DNA of 64,000 nt, taken from the NCBI GenBank assembly GCA_965248435.1, contig OZ252100.1:4128001-4192000 (forward strand). The letters are read 5' to 3'. The position numbers and the translations under genes are program-made. Shown here one piece after another: positions 15,736 through 21,369 of the stretch; positions within the stretch are counted from its first letter, which is position 1, and every line of letters starts with the position of its first letter. The stretch comes from Candidatus Latescibacterota bacterium. Lineage in GTDB: Bacteria > Latescibacterota > UBA2968 > GCA-2709665. The notes under the pieces were generated by a model that saw only the letters and a list, made by a program, of their open reading frames with translations, did not search any database and had not been told where the DNA came from.

Positions 15736-15821
15736 GTCGGGCCCCAGGGAGCAGGCACGAAAAAGCACCTGCGAATATAATACACAGGTGCCAACTCACC
15801 TTGCCCAATGACTTGCCGACG

Positions 15822-16433
15822 CTATCCCTGGGTGGCCAGTGTCTGCTTCAGTCCGCTCAACAGGTCAACGACTTTGTCGATCTCCTCCTTCGGCGCCATG
15901 TCCCTGTATCTCGTGAAGGCTTCGACGGCGCGGCCGAACTCTTCGTTCAGGGCGTGGACCAGGCCCAGGTTGAACTGGGTGTTCGGATATCCGGGATGGA
16001 TCTCCGCCGCGATTTCGTAGTGCACGCGCGCGAGCGCGAGGTCACCCGTCTCGAAGTACTGGTTTGCGAGGTTGTAGTGGGTTTCGAAGTGGCGGGGGTT
16101 GGCCTTCAGGGATTTGGTGAAGCAGTCGAAGGCCTTGGCCGTCCTGCCCTGCTGGGATTCCAGGATGCCCAGGTTGCAGAAGGCATCGGCCACGCAGTCC
16201 CCTTCTGAGATCGCGGTCAAGTAGGCGTCGGCGGCCTTCGGGTCTCCCCGCTCGTCAAGCAGCAGGGCCTCCTCGAAGCGCCCGATCGTTCTGGGAAGTT
16301 CGAGGACATTTCCAGACGACGTGGAGAAGAGGTCGAGCTGATCGGGATCGAAACGCTTCCGCTTGCGCTTCTTGACACGCTTGAACCCGAACTTGGCCGG
16401 GGGCTTTCCCGGAAAGGCGATCACATTGGCCAC
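15822..16433 (-). CDS. Tetratricopeptide repeat protein with basic N-terminus and QLDLF motif
   Basis: TPR consensus AFCNLG, THYNLA, TQFNLG; 32 nt downstream of ku. Confidence 0.85.
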   Translation of the reverse strand: MANVIAFPGKPPAKFGFKRVKKRKRKRFDPDQLDLFSTSSGNVLELPRTIGRFEEALLLDERGDPKAADAYLTAISEGDCVADAFCNLGILESQQGRTAKAFDCFTKSLKANPRHFETHYNLANQYFETGDLALARVHYEIAAEIHPGYPNTQFNLGLVHALNEEFGRAVEAFTRYRDMAPKEEIDKVVDLLSGLKQTLATQG

Positions 16434-16465
16434 ACTCTTTTACCTCAGGACGAAGTCGTGTAACC

Positions 16466-17347
16466 TCAGGCGGCTTTTCGCTTTTTGGCCTTGGCCGTGG
16501 TCTTGGTCTTCTTCGCCTTCTTGGCCTTCTTCGTTTGGGCTCGGGCCTTTCCGGTGGCCTTCTTCATCGGCTTCCGATCGGCCTTGGCCTGCTCGATGCT
16601 GTCCTTGAGGGCGGTCATAATGTCCACGACCGGTGCGAGCTCCTCGGCGACGGTCACGATTTCCCTGCCCTCGACCTTGGCCTCCACCATCTCCTTCACG
16701 GCCTGTCGGTAGTTGTCCTTCAGCTCGATCTTGTCCAGGGATGTGGACATCGAGTCGACGAGACTCTGGGCCATCTTCAGCTGTTGGGCGTCCGCCGCTT
16801 CACCGTCCAGTTGAGGTACGTCGGCGATGTTTCGCACCATCTCGGGCGTGCGGAGCTTGTAAAGGATCAGTCCGTTTTCCTCCGGGCCGATCATGACGAT
16901 CTCTTCCCGGTCTCGGAGCACGACCTTGCCGATGCCCAGCTTTCCGCTCTGTCTCAGGGCCTCGCCGAGGAGGGCATAGGCCTTCGCCGCGACGTCGCCG
17001 TCGGGCCCGGCGAAATAGGGGGTCTCATACAGGGTCGGGTGGACTTCCGAGGCGTCCACGAACCCCTCGATCTCGATGATCTTCGTGCTTTTGAGTTTGA
17101 TCTTTTCGAGGTCTTCCGCTTCGACGATCACGAACTGCTCCGGCTCGTACTGGTAGCCCTTGACGATCTCCTCCTTGTCGAGCACCTTGCTGCACTTCTT
17201 ACACTTCTTGTCATATCCGATCGGACCGTTGCACTCCTTGTGCAGCTGGTTGAATCGGATGGTCTGGGCTGTGTCCACGGCGTTGTAGATGCGGATGGGG
17301 ATCGTGACCAGGGAGAAACGGATGTGGCCTTTCCAGATTGCTCGCAT
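16466..17347 (-). CDS. ku: Non-homologous end joining protein Ku
   Basis: MRAIWKGHIRFSLVTIP, EIVKGYQY, Lys-rich C-terminal tail. Confidence 0.96.
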   Translation of the reverse strand: MRAIWKGHIRFSLVTIPIRIYNAVDTAQTIRFNQLHKECNGPIGYDKKCKKCSKVLDKEEIVKGYQYEPEQFVIVEAEDLEKIKLKSTKIIEIEGFVDASEVHPTLYETPYFAGPDGDVAAKAYALLGEALRQSGKLGIGKVVLRDREEIVMIGPEENGLILYKLRTPEMVRNIADVPQLDGEAADAQQLKMAQSLVDSMSTSLDKIELKDNYRQAVKEMVEAKVEGREIVTVAEELAPVVDIMTALKDSIEQAKADRKPMKKATGKARAQTKKAKKAKKTKTTAKAKKRKAA

Positions 17348-17386
17348 GCTTTACCTCCGCGTCGGGTCTGGGTGTGACGTTTCGAT

Positions 17387-19714
17387 TCAGGCCGTCAGAT
17401 CGGGACGGAGCCGCACGAAGACCGGCTCGCGCAGCGTCCCGTTGGGTGTGAACGAGGCGTACTGGACCTCGCACAGCAGTTCAGGTTTCAGCCATGTCGT
17501 CTGGGCGTCGTCGACCGGTCTTTCCTTCACGGGACGTTTTCCCGGGGGGACCTTCTTGAGTTCTTTCAGCACGGTCTTGAGCATCCGATCGTCGAAGCCG
17601 GTCCCGACCTTGCCCAGATACTTCAGCCCGTCCCCGTTCCCCTGTGCAAGATGCAGCGCCCCGAATCCGGACCGGCGATCTCCCTTGCCTTCCGTGTAGC
17701 CGATGATCATACACTCGGTCGTCTGCCTGGCCTTTACCTTGAGCCACGAAGCGGACCGCCTGCCGGGCAGGTAATGACTGTCGGACTGTTTGGCCATGAT
17801 GCCCTCGAGGCCCATCTTCTTGGCCGCCTCGAAGAGGTCATTCCCTTCGTCCACGGCCTCGCTGACGCGATAGGTCTCGTTCCTGCGGACGGCATCGGTC
17901 ATCCACTCGCGCCGCACCGTCAGGGGTTCGCTGACGATGGGCCGCCCGTCCAGGTAGAGGCAGTCGAACAGGTAGCAGACGGCGGGGTGCTTTGCGCTCG
18001 CGCGCGTAATCGCGCCCTCGCTCGTGGGATGGAGGCGGCCCACCGCGTGATGGAAGATCGGCCGGCCGCCTTCCTCGAGGCAGACGATCTCGGCGTCGAA
18101 AAGCGCGGAGGAGGCCCTGAAGGCCTGCTCGGGAATCAGCAGCTCCGGGAAGTATTTGGTGATGTCCCGCTGGCTGCGGCTTCTGATCCTCATTTCCCCT
18201 TCGTCGATCGCGATCATGGCCCGTATGCCGTCCCACTTGACTTCATACAGATATTCGGGTCCATCAGGCGGCTCGTCCTGGGTCTCCGCCAGCATGGGAT
18301 CGATCGGCTCGACGAGCCAGTCCACCTGAAGCGGATCGACGCGCTCCAGCAGACATTCCTTGTTCCGGGTGTTGATCAGCCGGTATTCACCGGTGACGCC
18401 CTCACCGTAGAGCCGAAAATAGAAACTGTCTTTCTTCTGCTTCGTGATTTCGTAGGTCCCGTGTCCGAAGATCCACATCCGGCCGCCGCCGTACTGGCCT
18501 TTCGGGATCGTGCCGTCGAAGGCGAGGTATTCGATCGGGTGGTCTTCCACGGAGACTGCCAGGCGCTTGATTCCCGGCCGGGGGGGGAGCCCCTTCGGAA
18601 CGGCCCACGACCTCAGTGCGCCCTCGTGTTCGAGCCGCAGGTCGTAGTGGAGCCTGGAGGCGTGATGGCGATGGATGACGAACGCATTTCCATCTCCCCC
18701 GATCTCGGCAGGAACGGGCTCGGGTGTCTTGCCGAAGTTCCGCTTCTGTCTGTACGCCTCGAGGTCCTCGGGTGACTTGAAGGTCGGGGACGGCCCGACC
18801 TGCCTCCTGGACTTTTTCGTCTGCTTCCGCTCGGTGTGGAGGTCCACGGCGTAGGCGTTGAATCCTTCCCAGGCATCCCCCTCAGAGCGAACGTGGTCCC
18901 TAACGGTGCGGATGTTGAAGACCTTCGGGTCGTCGACGCCGCTCAACTGCTCCCACTGGAGCGGCATCGAGATCGGGGCCGACACGGCGCCTCGAACGCT
19001 GTAGGGTGAAACGATCGTCTGGTAGTGACGGTTCCGGTAGATGTCGACGAGCACCTTTCCGCCACGTGCGTCTTTCTTGATGCGGAGGGTGGTCGACGAC
19101 CCGTGCGCGTCCACGAACGGCCGGGCGACATCCGCGGCGGCATCCGCGACCTGATCGAAGCTCCACCTGGGCTGGATCGGGCAGAGGATGTGCACGCCCT
19201 TTCGGCCGGTCGTCTTGACGAAGGGATGGTATCCGAACCCTTCGACGTGTTCCTTGAGGTCGATGGCCAGGCCGACCACTTCCTCGAATGGGAAATCTTC
19301 CGGGGGATCCAGGTCGAAGACGACGTAGTCCGGCTTGTCGTAGTGCGGCTTGTGAGAGTGCATCTGGTGCAGTTCAAGACAGGCCAGGTTTGCGACCCAG
19401 ACGAGGGTGGCCTCTTCGGAGGCGAGGATGTAGTCGATCTTGTCTTCTTCACCCAGTGCGACGTGCTGAACCCACTCGGGGGCCCAGTCCGGCCGGTTTT
19501 TCTGAAAGAATCGCCCACCCGTGATCCCATCCGGGTAGCGGACGAAGGAAAGGGGCCGGCCGTAGAGGTGCGAGAGGATCGTCGGCGCGATTTCCAGATA
19601 GTACTCGATGAGCTCGGCTTTGAGAAACCCGTCTCCGGGGAAGAGGACCTTATTCAGGTTCGAAAGCTCGATTTTGCGCTTTCCGACACTGGCTAATTGT
19701 GACGTTCTGGCCAT
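17387..19714 (-). CDS. ligD: NHEJ DNA ligase D (polymerase-phosphoesterase-ligase order)
   Basis: Primase-polymerase RYPDG/FDLDP/KTTGRKGVH; PE domain HHASRLHYDLRLE; ligase EVKWDG, EGIMAK, WLKVK. Confidence 0.96.
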   Translation of the reverse strand: MARTSQLASVGKRKIELSNLNKVLFPGDGFLKAELIEYYLEIAPTILSHLYGRPLSFVRYPDGITGGRFFQKNRPDWAPEWVQHVALGEEDKIDYILASEEATLVWVANLACLELHQMHSHKPHYDKPDYVVFDLDPPEDFPFEEVVGLAIDLKEHVEGFGYHPFVKTTGRKGVHILCPIQPRWSFDQVADAAADVARPFVDAHGSSTTLRIKKDARGGKVLVDIYRNRHYQTIVSPYSVRGAVSAPISMPLQWEQLSGVDDPKVFNIRTVRDHVRSEGDAWEGFNAYAVDLHTERKQTKKSRRQVGPSPTFKSPEDLEAYRQKRNFGKTPEPVPAEIGGDGNAFVIHRHHASRLHYDLRLEHEGALRSWAVPKGLPPRPGIKRLAVSVEDHPIEYLAFDGTIPKGQYGGGRMWIFGHGTYEITKQKKDSFYFRLYGEGVTGEYRLINTRNKECLLERVDPLQVDWLVEPIDPMLAETQDEPPDGPEYLYEVKWDGIRAMIAIDEGEMRIRSRSQRDITKYFPELLIPEQAFRASSALFDAEIVCLEEGGRPIFHHAVGRLHPTSEGAITRASAKHPAVCYLFDCLYLDGRPIVSEPLTVRREWMTDAVRRNETYRVSEAVDEGNDLFEAAKKMGLEGIMAKQSDSHYLPGRRSASWLKVKARQTTECMIIGYTEGKGDRRSGFGALHLAQGNGDGLKYLGKVGTGFDDRMLKTVLKELKKVPPGKRPVKERPVDDAQTTWLKPELLCEVQYASFTPNGTLREPVFVRLRPDLTA

Positions 19715-19898
19715 CGACCGTCCTTGCCGATCTCGGTTCCCGGGCCGACCCGAGGGTGGCTTCCGGACCCCGATTCTGGTGCTAAGATTCGCTGTTATAA
19801 GGTCTTATAAAGATAAGAACTGCCGTCTTGCGTTGTCAACGGACAAATTCCGAATCAGTTGCATCTATTTGGCCAATGCGTTATATTATAAGCCGTTT

Positions 19899-20515: not shown

Positions 20516-20588
20516 TTGATAAGGATCTCGGAGAAGCACGCCGTCCAGGTCCGATCGCGAATCTCGTTCTAACGTGGGGGAGCGACAG

Positions 20589-20960
20589 ATGAAGATTCTC
20601 CTTGCAGAGGATGATCCGACGATCCGTAAGCTTTATGGCGAGGTGCTCGAGAGCTGCGGCCACGCCGTGATCACGGCGCGCGACGGCCGGGAGGCACTGA
20701 CGCGGATTGCGGAAGGGGAGTGTGATCTGGTGGTGATGGACCTCCATATGCCCAACATGAACGGGTTTGAGGCCCTCGGGGAGATGAAGCGGCAGGGGTC
20801 GAACCTGCCGGTGATCGTCATCTCGGGGTTCTATCCTGAGGATGTGATGGCGGAGCAGTTCCAGGATCTGGGACTGGAGATCAAGGAGGTGCTCAAGAAG
20901 CCTGTCAAGATCACGGACATTTCAAATGCGATTCACCGCGTCACCGTGGGGATGAGCTGA
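20589..20960 (+). CDS. Single-domain response regulator
   Basis: KILLAEDD, DLHMPNMNG, KP. Confidence 0.92.
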   Translation: MKILLAEDDPTIRKLYGEVLESCGHAVITARDGREALTRIAEGECDLVVMDLHMPNMNGFEALGEMKRQGSNLPVIVISGFYPEDVMAEQFQDLGLEIKEVLKKPVKITDISNAIHRVTVGMS

Positions 20961-20997
20961 GGCTCCGCGGCGCAGAGCGGCAGGGCGGGAAAACGAA

Positions 20998-21369
20998 ATG
21001 GCCACCATCCTGATTATCGACGACGACGAACCGGTGAGGCTCGTGATTCGTGAGATCCTCGAAAAGGCAGGGCACCAGGTCATCGAGGCAGAGGACGGTG
21101 TTGTGGGCTTGAGGGTCTACCGCGAGCGGCTCCCGGACCTGGTGACGACGAACATCCTGATGCCGGAGAAAGATGGGATCGAAACGATCAAGGAGCTGAA
21201 ACAAGAATTCCCGAACGTGAAGATCATCGCGATTTCAGGCGCTGACGTCTCCGGCGTCTTCGGCTTTCTTTCCCTGGCCAGAGAACTCGGCGCCGAGCGC
21301 GCTTTGGTAAAGCCCTTCCACAAACAGGAGATCCTGGAGGCGGTAGAGGAACTCCTAGAAGAGACGTAG
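20998..21369 (+). CDS. Single-domain receiver protein with phosphoacceptor Asp replaced by Asn
   Basis: ILIIDDD...DLVTTNILMPEKDG...KPF. Confidence 0.9.
   Translation: MATILIIDDDEPVRLVIREILEKAGHQVIEAEDGVVGLRVYRERLPDLVTTNILMPEKDGIETIKELKQEFPNVKIIAISGADVSGVFGFLSLARELGAERALVKPFHKQEILEAVEELLEET

Follow-up and report, generated by a model that had tools for sequence, protein, structure and literature searches.

A conserved tetratricopeptide repeat protein encoded beside ku in bacterial LigD-Ku end-joining loci

[quoted passage not shown] The question arises from a locus in a 64,000-nucleotide stretch of DNA from Candidatus Latescibacterota bacterium (assembly GCA_965248435.1, contig OZ252100.1, positions 4,128,001 to 4,192,000 of the forward strand; hereafter the window). 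Positions 15,822 to 19,714 of the window encode LigD, Ku and a small protein with tetratricopeptide repeats (TPRs), for which the initial annotation had proposed a role as an accessory NHEJ adaptor linking end joining to the sliding clamp or to DNA. On balance, we lean towards the view that this protein acts as an adaptor associated with NHEJ, with Ku, DNA and probably the beta-clamp as its binding partners, and that it is the third, co-inherited part of a LigD-Ku-TPR cassette. That it has some functional tie to Ku and NHEJ we regard as likely.

Gene order and linkage to ku

The three genes lie head to tail on the minus strand:

17387..19714, minus strand: ligD, DNA ligase D with POL, PE and LIG/OB domains (775 aa; open reading frame (ORF) call, Pfam and TIGR02776)
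16466..17347, minus strand: ku, bacterial Ku with a Lys-rich C-terminal tail (293 aa; Pfam and TIGR02772)
15822..16433, minus strand: the TPR-protein gene (203 aa; GTG start with GAGGT 8 nt upstream)

The intergenic gaps are 39 nt between ligD and ku and 32 nt between ku and the TPR gene. ORF coordinates and domain matches both agree with the co-oriented arrangement first described, and the accompanying description of the sequence (ORFs, gaps, the basic patch KRVKKRKRKR, the pentapeptide QLDLF and the TPRs) was accurate throughout. LigD matches TIGR02776 with 473.1 bits (cut-off 373.2), and its polymerase, phosphoesterase and ligase domains are all present. Pfam places LigD_Prim-Pol at residues 32-282 (267 bits), the phosphoesterase domain LigD_N at 348-447 (113 bits), the ligase domain DNA_ligase_A_M at 473-661 (123 bits) and the OB domain DNA_ligase_A_C at 680-772 (88 bits). 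Against the full-length models it scores below the cut-off, with 625 bits for NF007210 (989 required) and 611 bits for NF004628 (895 required). Ku is of the bacterial family (TIGR02772, 273.4 bits, cut-off 150; Pfam Ku, 158.7 bits), and its core matches the solved Ku structures of Bacillus subtilis and Mycobacterium tuberculosis. The GTG start of the TPR gene is supported by the homologues, since their N-termini align from residue 1 (M1 in 115 of 120 sequences).

Gene neighbourhoods were scanned in one genome per species, which gave 43 loci. Six of these (L046-L051) were generic TPR matches and were dropped; the remaining 37 (L009-L045) contain homologues with 45-77% identity. In all 37, ku lies directly upstream on the same strand, the only blemishes being one ku cut by a contig end, one frameshifted ku and one frameshifted TPR gene. 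By ORF calls, the gap between ku and the TPR gene has a median of ∼30 nt and ranges from overlapping to 664 nt. LigD is found upstream in 23 of the 37 loci; it is adjacent to ku in 20 of these, and in L014, L036 and L039 there are 1.4-2.7 kb of unrelated genes between ligD and ku. Nine loci show no LigD match at any position although their upstream sequence extends for 1.3 kb or more, and in five the contig ends within 250 nt of ku. Thus, the TPR gene tracks ku more closely than it tracks ligD (37 of 37 against 23 of 37). The expectation that homologues would be linked to both genes holds for ku, also in the genomes of the window's own phylum described below, whereas the linkage to ligD is looser.

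By record title, the loci come from Latescibacterota, Nitrospirota, Bacteroidota, KSB1, Ignavibacteriota/Chlorobiota, Calditrichota, ‘Deltaproteobacteria’, Chloroflexota and Verrucomicrobiota, at least nine phyla overall. The Ku proteins of the cassettes have a mean pairwise identity of 69%, and the Ku tree mixes phyla. These two observations fit a horizontal spread of the whole cassette, although binning errors in metagenome-assembled genomes could also contribute to them. Pairwise distances of Ku and of the TPR protein are correlated with r = 0.83, a value reached in 0 of 2000 permutations; this correlation reports co-inheritance, not binding.

The only other recurrent neighbour is a DUF72 gene, found upstream of ligD in 9 of the 37 loci; the remaining neighbours vary and include two-component systems, an ABC ATPase, a peptidase and HAD proteins, among others. 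In the window's genome a DUF72 protein encoded outside the window (G000:C1:4814563-4815375) ends exactly in QLDLF. A second clamp link through DUF72 was considered and dropped: the nine copies that adjoin ligD (L014:37-783 and those of eight further loci) have basic C-terminal tails and no QLDLF-type motif. DUF72 could be an enzyme of DNA repair with more than one mode of recruitment.

Co-occurrence was assessed in a sample of 168 genomes of the window's phylum, with Ku scored at E ≤ 1e-20 and the TPR family at E ≤ 1e-25. Ku was found in 23 genomes and the TPR family in 29, and all 23 Ku-positive genomes were also TPR-positive. At 21 of the 23 Ku loci the TPR gene follows ku downstream at a distance of at most 1.5 kb, a count that includes the window's own genome and a divergent copy in genome G008 (25% identity, with QLSLF). 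Genomes G097 and G098 carry an intact TPR gene with QLDLF that is unlinked and megabases away from ku. In the window's own order the TPR gene is present in at most 4 of 41 genomes and Ku in 3 of 41, and this rarity of the cassette points to its acquisition.

Two control samples were negative for the TPR family. It was found in none of 61 genomes of the actinobacterial family around an Amycolatopsis genome, 57 of which have Ku (0 of 59 and 55 of 59, respectively, when G174 and G208, flagged as unpublished, are set aside), and on none of 72,556 plasmids at E ≤ 1e-10, with Ku present on 701 plasmid records. The plasmid Ku records are mostly from Rhizobium, Streptomyces and Sinorhizobium, and all are below 40% identity. 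Because no member was found in the actinobacterial sample or in the plasmid sample (mostly rhizobial and Streptomyces), the TPR protein is, on the evidence of these samples, specific to one Ku/LigD clade and not a general NHEJ component.

Some further features of the phylum's genomes were seen during this survey. The ORF just downstream of ku in G098 (L077:999-1361, minus strand) encodes a 120-aa Cys-rich protein with a CxxC...CxC pattern. In genus g31 (L071, L074, L075 and L076) open frames of 582-1128 aa contain the Ku match, which could reflect LigD-Ku read-through or fusion, or else GC-rich DNA with overlapping frames. A second, divergent TPR paralogue occurs in G008 (L057:5465-6049 on G008:C41; 36% identity, QLSLF), ∼10 kb from two genes whose putative products, judged by eye from the N-terminal sequences only, are DNA polymerase IV and an endonuclease IV-like protein.

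A TPR domain behind a conserved tail

The TPR protein begins MANVIAFPGKPPAKFGFKRVKKRKRKRFDPDQLDLFSTSSGNVLELP and continues into helical repeats. Pfam matches are to TPR models only (TPR_1, 64.3 bits, cut-off 27.8; TPR_2, 59.9 bits) and cover residues 82-184. An AlphaFold2 model built from a 37-sequence alignment has a mean predicted local distance difference test (pLDDT) score of 84.2, and it divides the protein in two: residues 1-50, at pLDDT 44-64, are predicted to form a disordered tail, and the rest folds into a TPR domain. The parts of the protein to which we refer below are:

16410..16433, minus strand: tail motif 1, residues 1-8, MANVIAFP (consensus M-x-K-[IV]-[LI]-x-F-P; F7 in 113 of 120)
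16353..16406, minus strand: tail motif 2 and basic patch, residues 10-27, KPPAKFGFKRVKKRKRKR (family motif KPPxKFGFxRVKKRKK)
16326..16340, minus strand: tail motif 3, residues 32-36, QLDLF, a match to the beta-clamp-binding pentapeptide
16293..16310, minus strand: tail motif 4, residues 42-47, NVLELP (consensus [QR]-[VI]-L-x-L-P)
15828..16280, minus strand: TPR domain, residues 52-202, nine helices (AlphaFold2 pLDDT 92-98)

The modelled domain contains three canonical TPRs, one degenerate N-terminal repeat and one capping helix, so that the original estimate of about four repeats was a fair one. Residues 82-115 align to positions 1-34 of the Pfam TPR_1 profile, and this register puts the invariant residues of the family (D83, C86, N87, E117, N121, N124, N151 and N155) at helix-A positions 2, 5, 6 and 9 of three successive repeats, with an invariant Asn at position 6 in each. 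In solved TPR-peptide complexes, helix-A positions of this kind line the concave groove. Because the invariant residues occupy these groove-lining positions, the domain looks like the peptide-binding type of TPR with an asparagine ladder. In Foldseek searches the highest scores went to designed consensus TPRs, and the best natural matches were the TPRs of O-GlcNAc transferase (E ∼4e-7 to 6e-7, TM 0.59-0.64 on the query), a generic result.

By sequence, the protein is a member of a large, sharply conserved and unnamed family of ∼200 aa, with identities of 45-90% over at least nine phyla. When 5.8 billion clustered proteins were searched, 1,273 of the 2,090 candidates matched at E ≤ 1e-3. The 120 best relatives are 54-100% identical to the query, cover 82-100% of it (all but two at least 97%) and range in length from 168 to 225 aa (a single one is shorter than 196 aa). 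Any names given by the sources are merely ‘tetratricopeptide repeat protein’ or ‘TadD’. A profile search of 1.84 billion representatives returned 2,642 matches at E ≤ 1e-30, which is not a family count: the search was swamped by giant multi-TPR proteins, and ∼45 single-stretch proteins of ∼200 aa were among the top 150. Matches in the ESM Atlas are automatically named ‘TPR protein’ clusters only. No defence-system model of PADLOC matches the TPR protein or Ku, and no relative of the TPR protein was found on viral contigs.

Conservation of the tail was counted in the alignment of the best 120 family sequences. The sharpest motif is Q[LM]xLF, with Q in 119 sequences, L or M in 117, L in 118 and F in 116; its commonest forms are QLNLF (63), QLSLF (17), QLDLF (15) and QMNLF (6). 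Motif 2 is conserved at K14 (115 of 120), G16 (103), F17 (111), R19 (112) and V20 (114) and leads into the Lys/Arg patch, KRVKKRKRKR at residues 18-27, which lies ahead of QLDLF and the TPRs just as the initial annotation had stated. In motif 4 the conserved residues are L44 (96), L46 (100) and P47 (109). In sequence, motifs 1 and 4 ([IV]LxFP and [VI]LxLP) resemble each other. The motifs are spaced by variable linkers that carry indels. In P0186 an acidic insertion of ∼65 aa separates motifs 1 and 2, and motif 1 is still at the extreme N-terminus; in P0198 and P0199 a MerR_1 helix-turn-helix (HTH) domain (35.5 and 44.9 bits, cut-off 21.6) stands in place of the basic patch. These natural variants show the tail motifs to be separate modules. 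A contact of the basic patch with DNA is likely, and the best evidence for it here is that a folded HTH takes the place of the patch in P0198 and P0199.

The clamp-type motif merits separate consideration. Clamp-binding motifs have the consensus QL[SD]LF / QxxLxF, which the QLDLF of the TPR protein fits, and the model places it in an accessible segment predicted to be disordered (pLDDT 55-56 around the motif). From composition, QLxLF is expected ∼0.003 times per 203-aa protein, and among 4,666 crude ORFs of the window's genome 12 contain QL[SDN]LF, where 3.5 are expected. Together with the conservation in the family, these values argue that QLDLF is present beyond chance. MutS and Y-family polymerases are textbook clamp clients. 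In the same genome, MutS has QMGLF (residue 832 of 886) and an IMS/Y-family polymerase has QLGLF (residue 358 of 398), in both cases near the C-terminus and with the protein's identity confirmed by Pfam. Two known families of clamp binders thus carry Q[LM]xLF there, and the same motif class therefore occurs in this genome. From these sequence features, we regard binding of the TPR protein to the beta-clamp as evenly poised.

Partners of the TPR protein and alternative explanations

Co-folding of two Ku chains with the TPR protein gave a score of 0.51 (runs of 0.54, 0.50 and 0.51), against 0.05 for the best of three controls. At least 54% of contacts are shared between the runs, and the partner has a pLDDT of 70 or more. 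Of 157 solved complexes 116 attained the pass mark, as did 2 of 215 mismatched pairs; at scores of 0.60 or under, only 18 of the 157 solved complexes attained it, together with both of the passing mismatches. Custom alignments (A2 and A3) with matching row order were used as input, and the calibration is therefore approximate. Given the prior from the adjacency of the two genes in 37 of 37 loci, we read the co-fold as modest support; taken by itself, the model weakly supports binding of the TPR protein to Ku. The check by co-folding with Ku that the initial annotation had called for separates the pair from its controls, but in a score range that is shared with mismatches.

A possible ligand of the TPR groove is found in the C-terminal tail of Ku:

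16550..16573, minus strand: Ku tail motif K259-P-M-K-K-A-T-G266, in which K, P, M, A and G do not vary among 35 cassette Ku proteins

The motif KPMxKAxG is not present at the aligned place in the one comparator, M. tuberculosis Ku, and we consider it a candidate peptide ligand of the groove.

The adaptor that we favour would work as follows. The conserved concave face of the TPR domain would hold an extended partner peptide, and the protein would by this means bind the Ku ring, perhaps via the invariant KPMxKAxG of the Ku tail. The Lys/Arg patch would rest on DNA, and Q[LM]xLF would fit into the hydrophobic pocket of a beta-clamp that sits on the same duplex, so that the tail would tie the Ku/LigD end complex to both DNA and clamp. 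Motifs 1 and 4 may bind some further partner. In its strongest form, this amounts to a three-component NHEJ machine in which the Ku ring and the beta sliding clamp on the same DNA are held together by a physical link through the TPR adaptor, and in that form we think it unlikely. If it were true, the clamp, or a clamp loader recruited through it, could give the LigD polymerase and ligase a platform at the break or could decide where end joining is allowed, for example behind replication forks or at them. Either could also help to remove Ku rings that stay trapped on DNA once ligation is done; we know of no described bacterial mechanism for this step.

Several observations weigh against this adaptor. 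Much of the linkage to ku could reflect descent of one mobile cassette and not many independent associations. The Ku co-fold is a weak pass, a score without interface output. A search for Ku-TPR fusions, in which tail residues 1-66 were compared with proteins of 357-2000 aa, had no scoring hit, a weak negative. The clamp-type motif is canonical in 28 of 35 genome rows but degenerate or deleted in the other seven (RLNRF, QLNPF, QSEL-, ELNQS, QTNLS and two deletions), and at least one clade therefore works without QLxLF. Six TPR-positive genomes of the phylum have no detected Ku. Three of these, G037, G084 and G085 (three species of one genus, g8), have an intact TPR gene with all four tail motifs beside remnants of ligD and ku, and dN/dS in the two measurable pairs is 0.07 and 0.03. 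The other three, G096, G099 and G163, are fragmented assemblies. Finally, for a MerR-HTH subfamily (∼270 aa; P0198 and P0199), three loci extend 1.0-2.3 kb upstream, and none of them shows Ku or LigD over that distance.

The losses of the clamp-type motif are not scattered over the family. All seven aberrant rows fall inside one well-supported clade of 13 rows on the Ku tree, mostly metagenome-assembled genomes labelled Nitrospirota, and all 22 rows outside it keep QLxLF; motifs 1, 2 and 4 persist where it is lost. About five changes on the tree are needed, of which the starred branches alone force one. From this distribution (seven losses in one clade, 22 of 22 kept outside) the constraint on QLxLF looks relaxed in one lineage and strong elsewhere. 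The predicted conservation of QLxLF among homologues is thus seen in the best 120 sequences, where Q and F are nearly invariant, but universality of the motif in the family had to be rejected on account of the seven rows.

The g8 genomes are the most informative of those that lack Ku. No Ku was found in the three assemblies, which are 84-91% complete, with the Pfam Ku model at E ≤ 0.1. The remnant in G084 joins LigD residues 1-249 to Ku residues 211-261, and G037 and G085 retain less. The TPR proteins of the three species are 83-85% identical, and synonymous sites are saturated. This strong purifying selection beside decayed ligD and ku argues that the TPR protein has a function that outlives the loss of Ku and LigD. 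G096 and G099 are negative both for Pfam Ku and for LigD. In the MerR-HTH subfamily the HTH lies between motif 2 and QLNLF, and the other motifs are kept; at L092:1046-1861 and L094:2005-2796 the gene adjoins one that is transcribed divergently and whose product has a radical-SAM-like CxxxCxxC cysteine motif. The g8 genomes and the MerR-HTH subfamily lead us to reject the proposition that the family occurs solely with Ku. The Ku-independent results favour a universal partner for the tail, such as the clamp, and they also keep in play an explanation in which end joining is not the core business of the protein. The proposal of an accessory NHEJ adaptor accordingly stands as far as linkage to ku and co-occurrence with it go, but not as a strict tie to NHEJ nor as a general component of the pathway.

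As a separate observation, decaying cassettes with an intact TPR gene downstream were seen at L090 (G084:C29), L056 (G037:C78), L091 (G085:C245) and L058 (G008:C41). In-frame deletions in these cassettes fuse the start of LigD to the end of Ku; the G008 product has LigD residues 1-55 with Ku residues 75-260.

How well do other explanations account for these data? The protein could be a partner of Ku or LigD that has nothing to do with the clamp, its tail motifs docking on Ku, on LigD or on its own TPR groove (auto-regulation), and could help the Ku ring to assemble, stabilise it or promote its release. The tightest linkage is indeed to ku (37 of 37), the weak support from the co-fold (0.51 against 0.05) concerns Ku, and QLxLF is dispensable in seven of 35 rows that retain motifs 1, 2 and 4; the likeness of motifs 1 and 4 would, moreover, suit two equivalent sites on a homodimer. 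However, this explanation leaves aside the fit of Q[LM]xLF to the clamp consensus and the motif class shared with MutS and the Y-family polymerase, and it is hard to apply to g8, where the tail must have a partner beyond Ku and LigD because its motifs are under purifying selection in a genus lacking both. We give it a small chance. The opposite possibility is a general DNA- and clamp-associated adaptor or regulator that the cassette merely carries and for which end joining is not the core job. This would explain the low dN/dS (0.03-0.07) beside decayed ligD and ku in g8, the MerR-HTH subfamily, which is not Ku-linked in three of three informative loci, and the intact genes of G097 and G098 that lie megabases from ku. 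It is nevertheless quite unlikely in our view, given that all 23 Ku-positive genomes of the phylum carry the gene and only six TPR-positive genomes have no detectable Ku, three of them from one genus and three of them fragmented assemblies. The tight, co-oriented spacing in 37 of 37 loci and the correlation of 0.83 are also hard to square with hitch-hiking across nine phyla.

A regulator of the operon, transcriptional or post-transcriptional, would use the patch or HTH to bind the promoter and the TPR domain to sense a signal. The MerR-type HTH of two variants would suit such a role, and the basic patch could bind nucleic acid, but the common form has no folded domain for DNA binding in the AlphaFold2 model and a regulator would have no need of a conserved clamp-type motif. 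No conserved operator was noticed, though no search was aimed at one, and we hold this explanation to be highly improbable.

Relation to known systems and further observations

The canonical two-component NHEJ of M. tuberculosis, B. subtilis and Pseudomonas aeruginosa consists of a Ku homodimer and LigD, and the cassette likewise has a Ku and a three-domain LigD, both scoring above the curated cut-offs. The domain order of mycobacterial LigD is POL-PE-LIG, which the cassette enzyme shares. The cassette differs in having a conserved third gene after ku and in the invariant KPMxKAxG of its Ku, which the aligned M. tuberculosis protein does not have.

Clamp binders with a pentapeptide of the QL[SD]LF type include Pol II, Pol IV, UmuC, MutS and Hda. 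The TPR protein likewise has its pentapeptide in a disordered segment, with Q, L and F conserved and the third position free, but it differs from them as a scaffold without an enzymatic domain whose motif is lost in one clade. In eukaryotes, XLF, APLF and PAXX reach Ku via short motifs in disordered tails, and these motifs bind regions of Ku70/80 that are missing from bacterial Ku. The logic is shared, namely a scaffold whose disordered tail pairs a basic patch with a short hydrophobic motif beside Ku; however, there is no kinship of sequence or fold with the TPR protein, and the comparison is an analogy only. The TPRs of O-GlcNAc transferase, the best natural fold match, share the asparagine ladder, but the TPR protein has only about four repeats and no catalytic domain.

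Literature abstracts, as far as their text goes, describe bacterial NHEJ as Ku plus LigD alone, and the retrieved portions of a comparative NHEJ study (PMC7719229) contain no mention of ‘accessory’ or ‘third gene’. In the open literature, including the retrieved portions of PMC7719229 and PMC10140301 and with subscription journals outside this scope, we found no link of Ku or LigD with a TPR protein or a clamp-motif adaptor. This suggests that the cassette is a form of bacterial NHEJ with a conserved third component not previously described in the literature found. The family may have been overlooked since no member turned up in the actinobacterial family (0 of 61) or in the sample of plasmids, among them those that carry Ku (0 of 72,556).

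Bacterial NHEJ is taught and reconstituted as a minimal pair of Ku and LigD, and a third protein would revise that picture for a large, mostly uncultured section of bacterial diversity. The pathway there would gain an adaptor layer like that of eukaryotic NHEJ, and end joining would have a concrete, testable link to the clamp of replication. Small, soluble-looking proteins with sharply defined motifs make up the family, which should therefore lend itself to testing.

The signals seen around the operon are consensus matches only:

19810..19839, minus strand: promoter-like TTGACA-18-TATCTT, ∼95 nt upstream of ligD (10 of 12 consensus matches)
15786..15801, minus strand: weak terminator-like hairpin, 21 nt past the stop codon of the TPR gene

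Two promoter-like sites were found against 1.1 expected, and the site upstream of ligD is a consensus match only. For terminator-like sites the numbers are seven found and 5.4 expected, hence the hairpin after the TPR gene is weak. The consensus scan of the minus strand gave no terminator-like site in the ligD-ku gap or the ku-TPR gap. Divergent from the region upstream of ligD, positions 20574-21369 of the window (plus strand) contain two consecutive ORFs for single-domain response-regulator-like proteins (128 and 123 aa).

Outside the window, clamp-type motifs were also noticed in other proteins encoded by the same genome. One is a RadC-like JAB protein (133 bits on Pfam RadC; G000:C1:1198636-1199166), which starts MSYRKGEQLELF and has the motif at its N-terminus. 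Four near-identical ORFs of 360-454 aa (G000:C1:4240298-4241662, 5353929-5355293, 3033898-3035214 and 5341159-5342241) share the segment YGSQQLSLFNAYF and, by appearance, are putative copies of an insertion-sequence transposase that carries a motif of this type.

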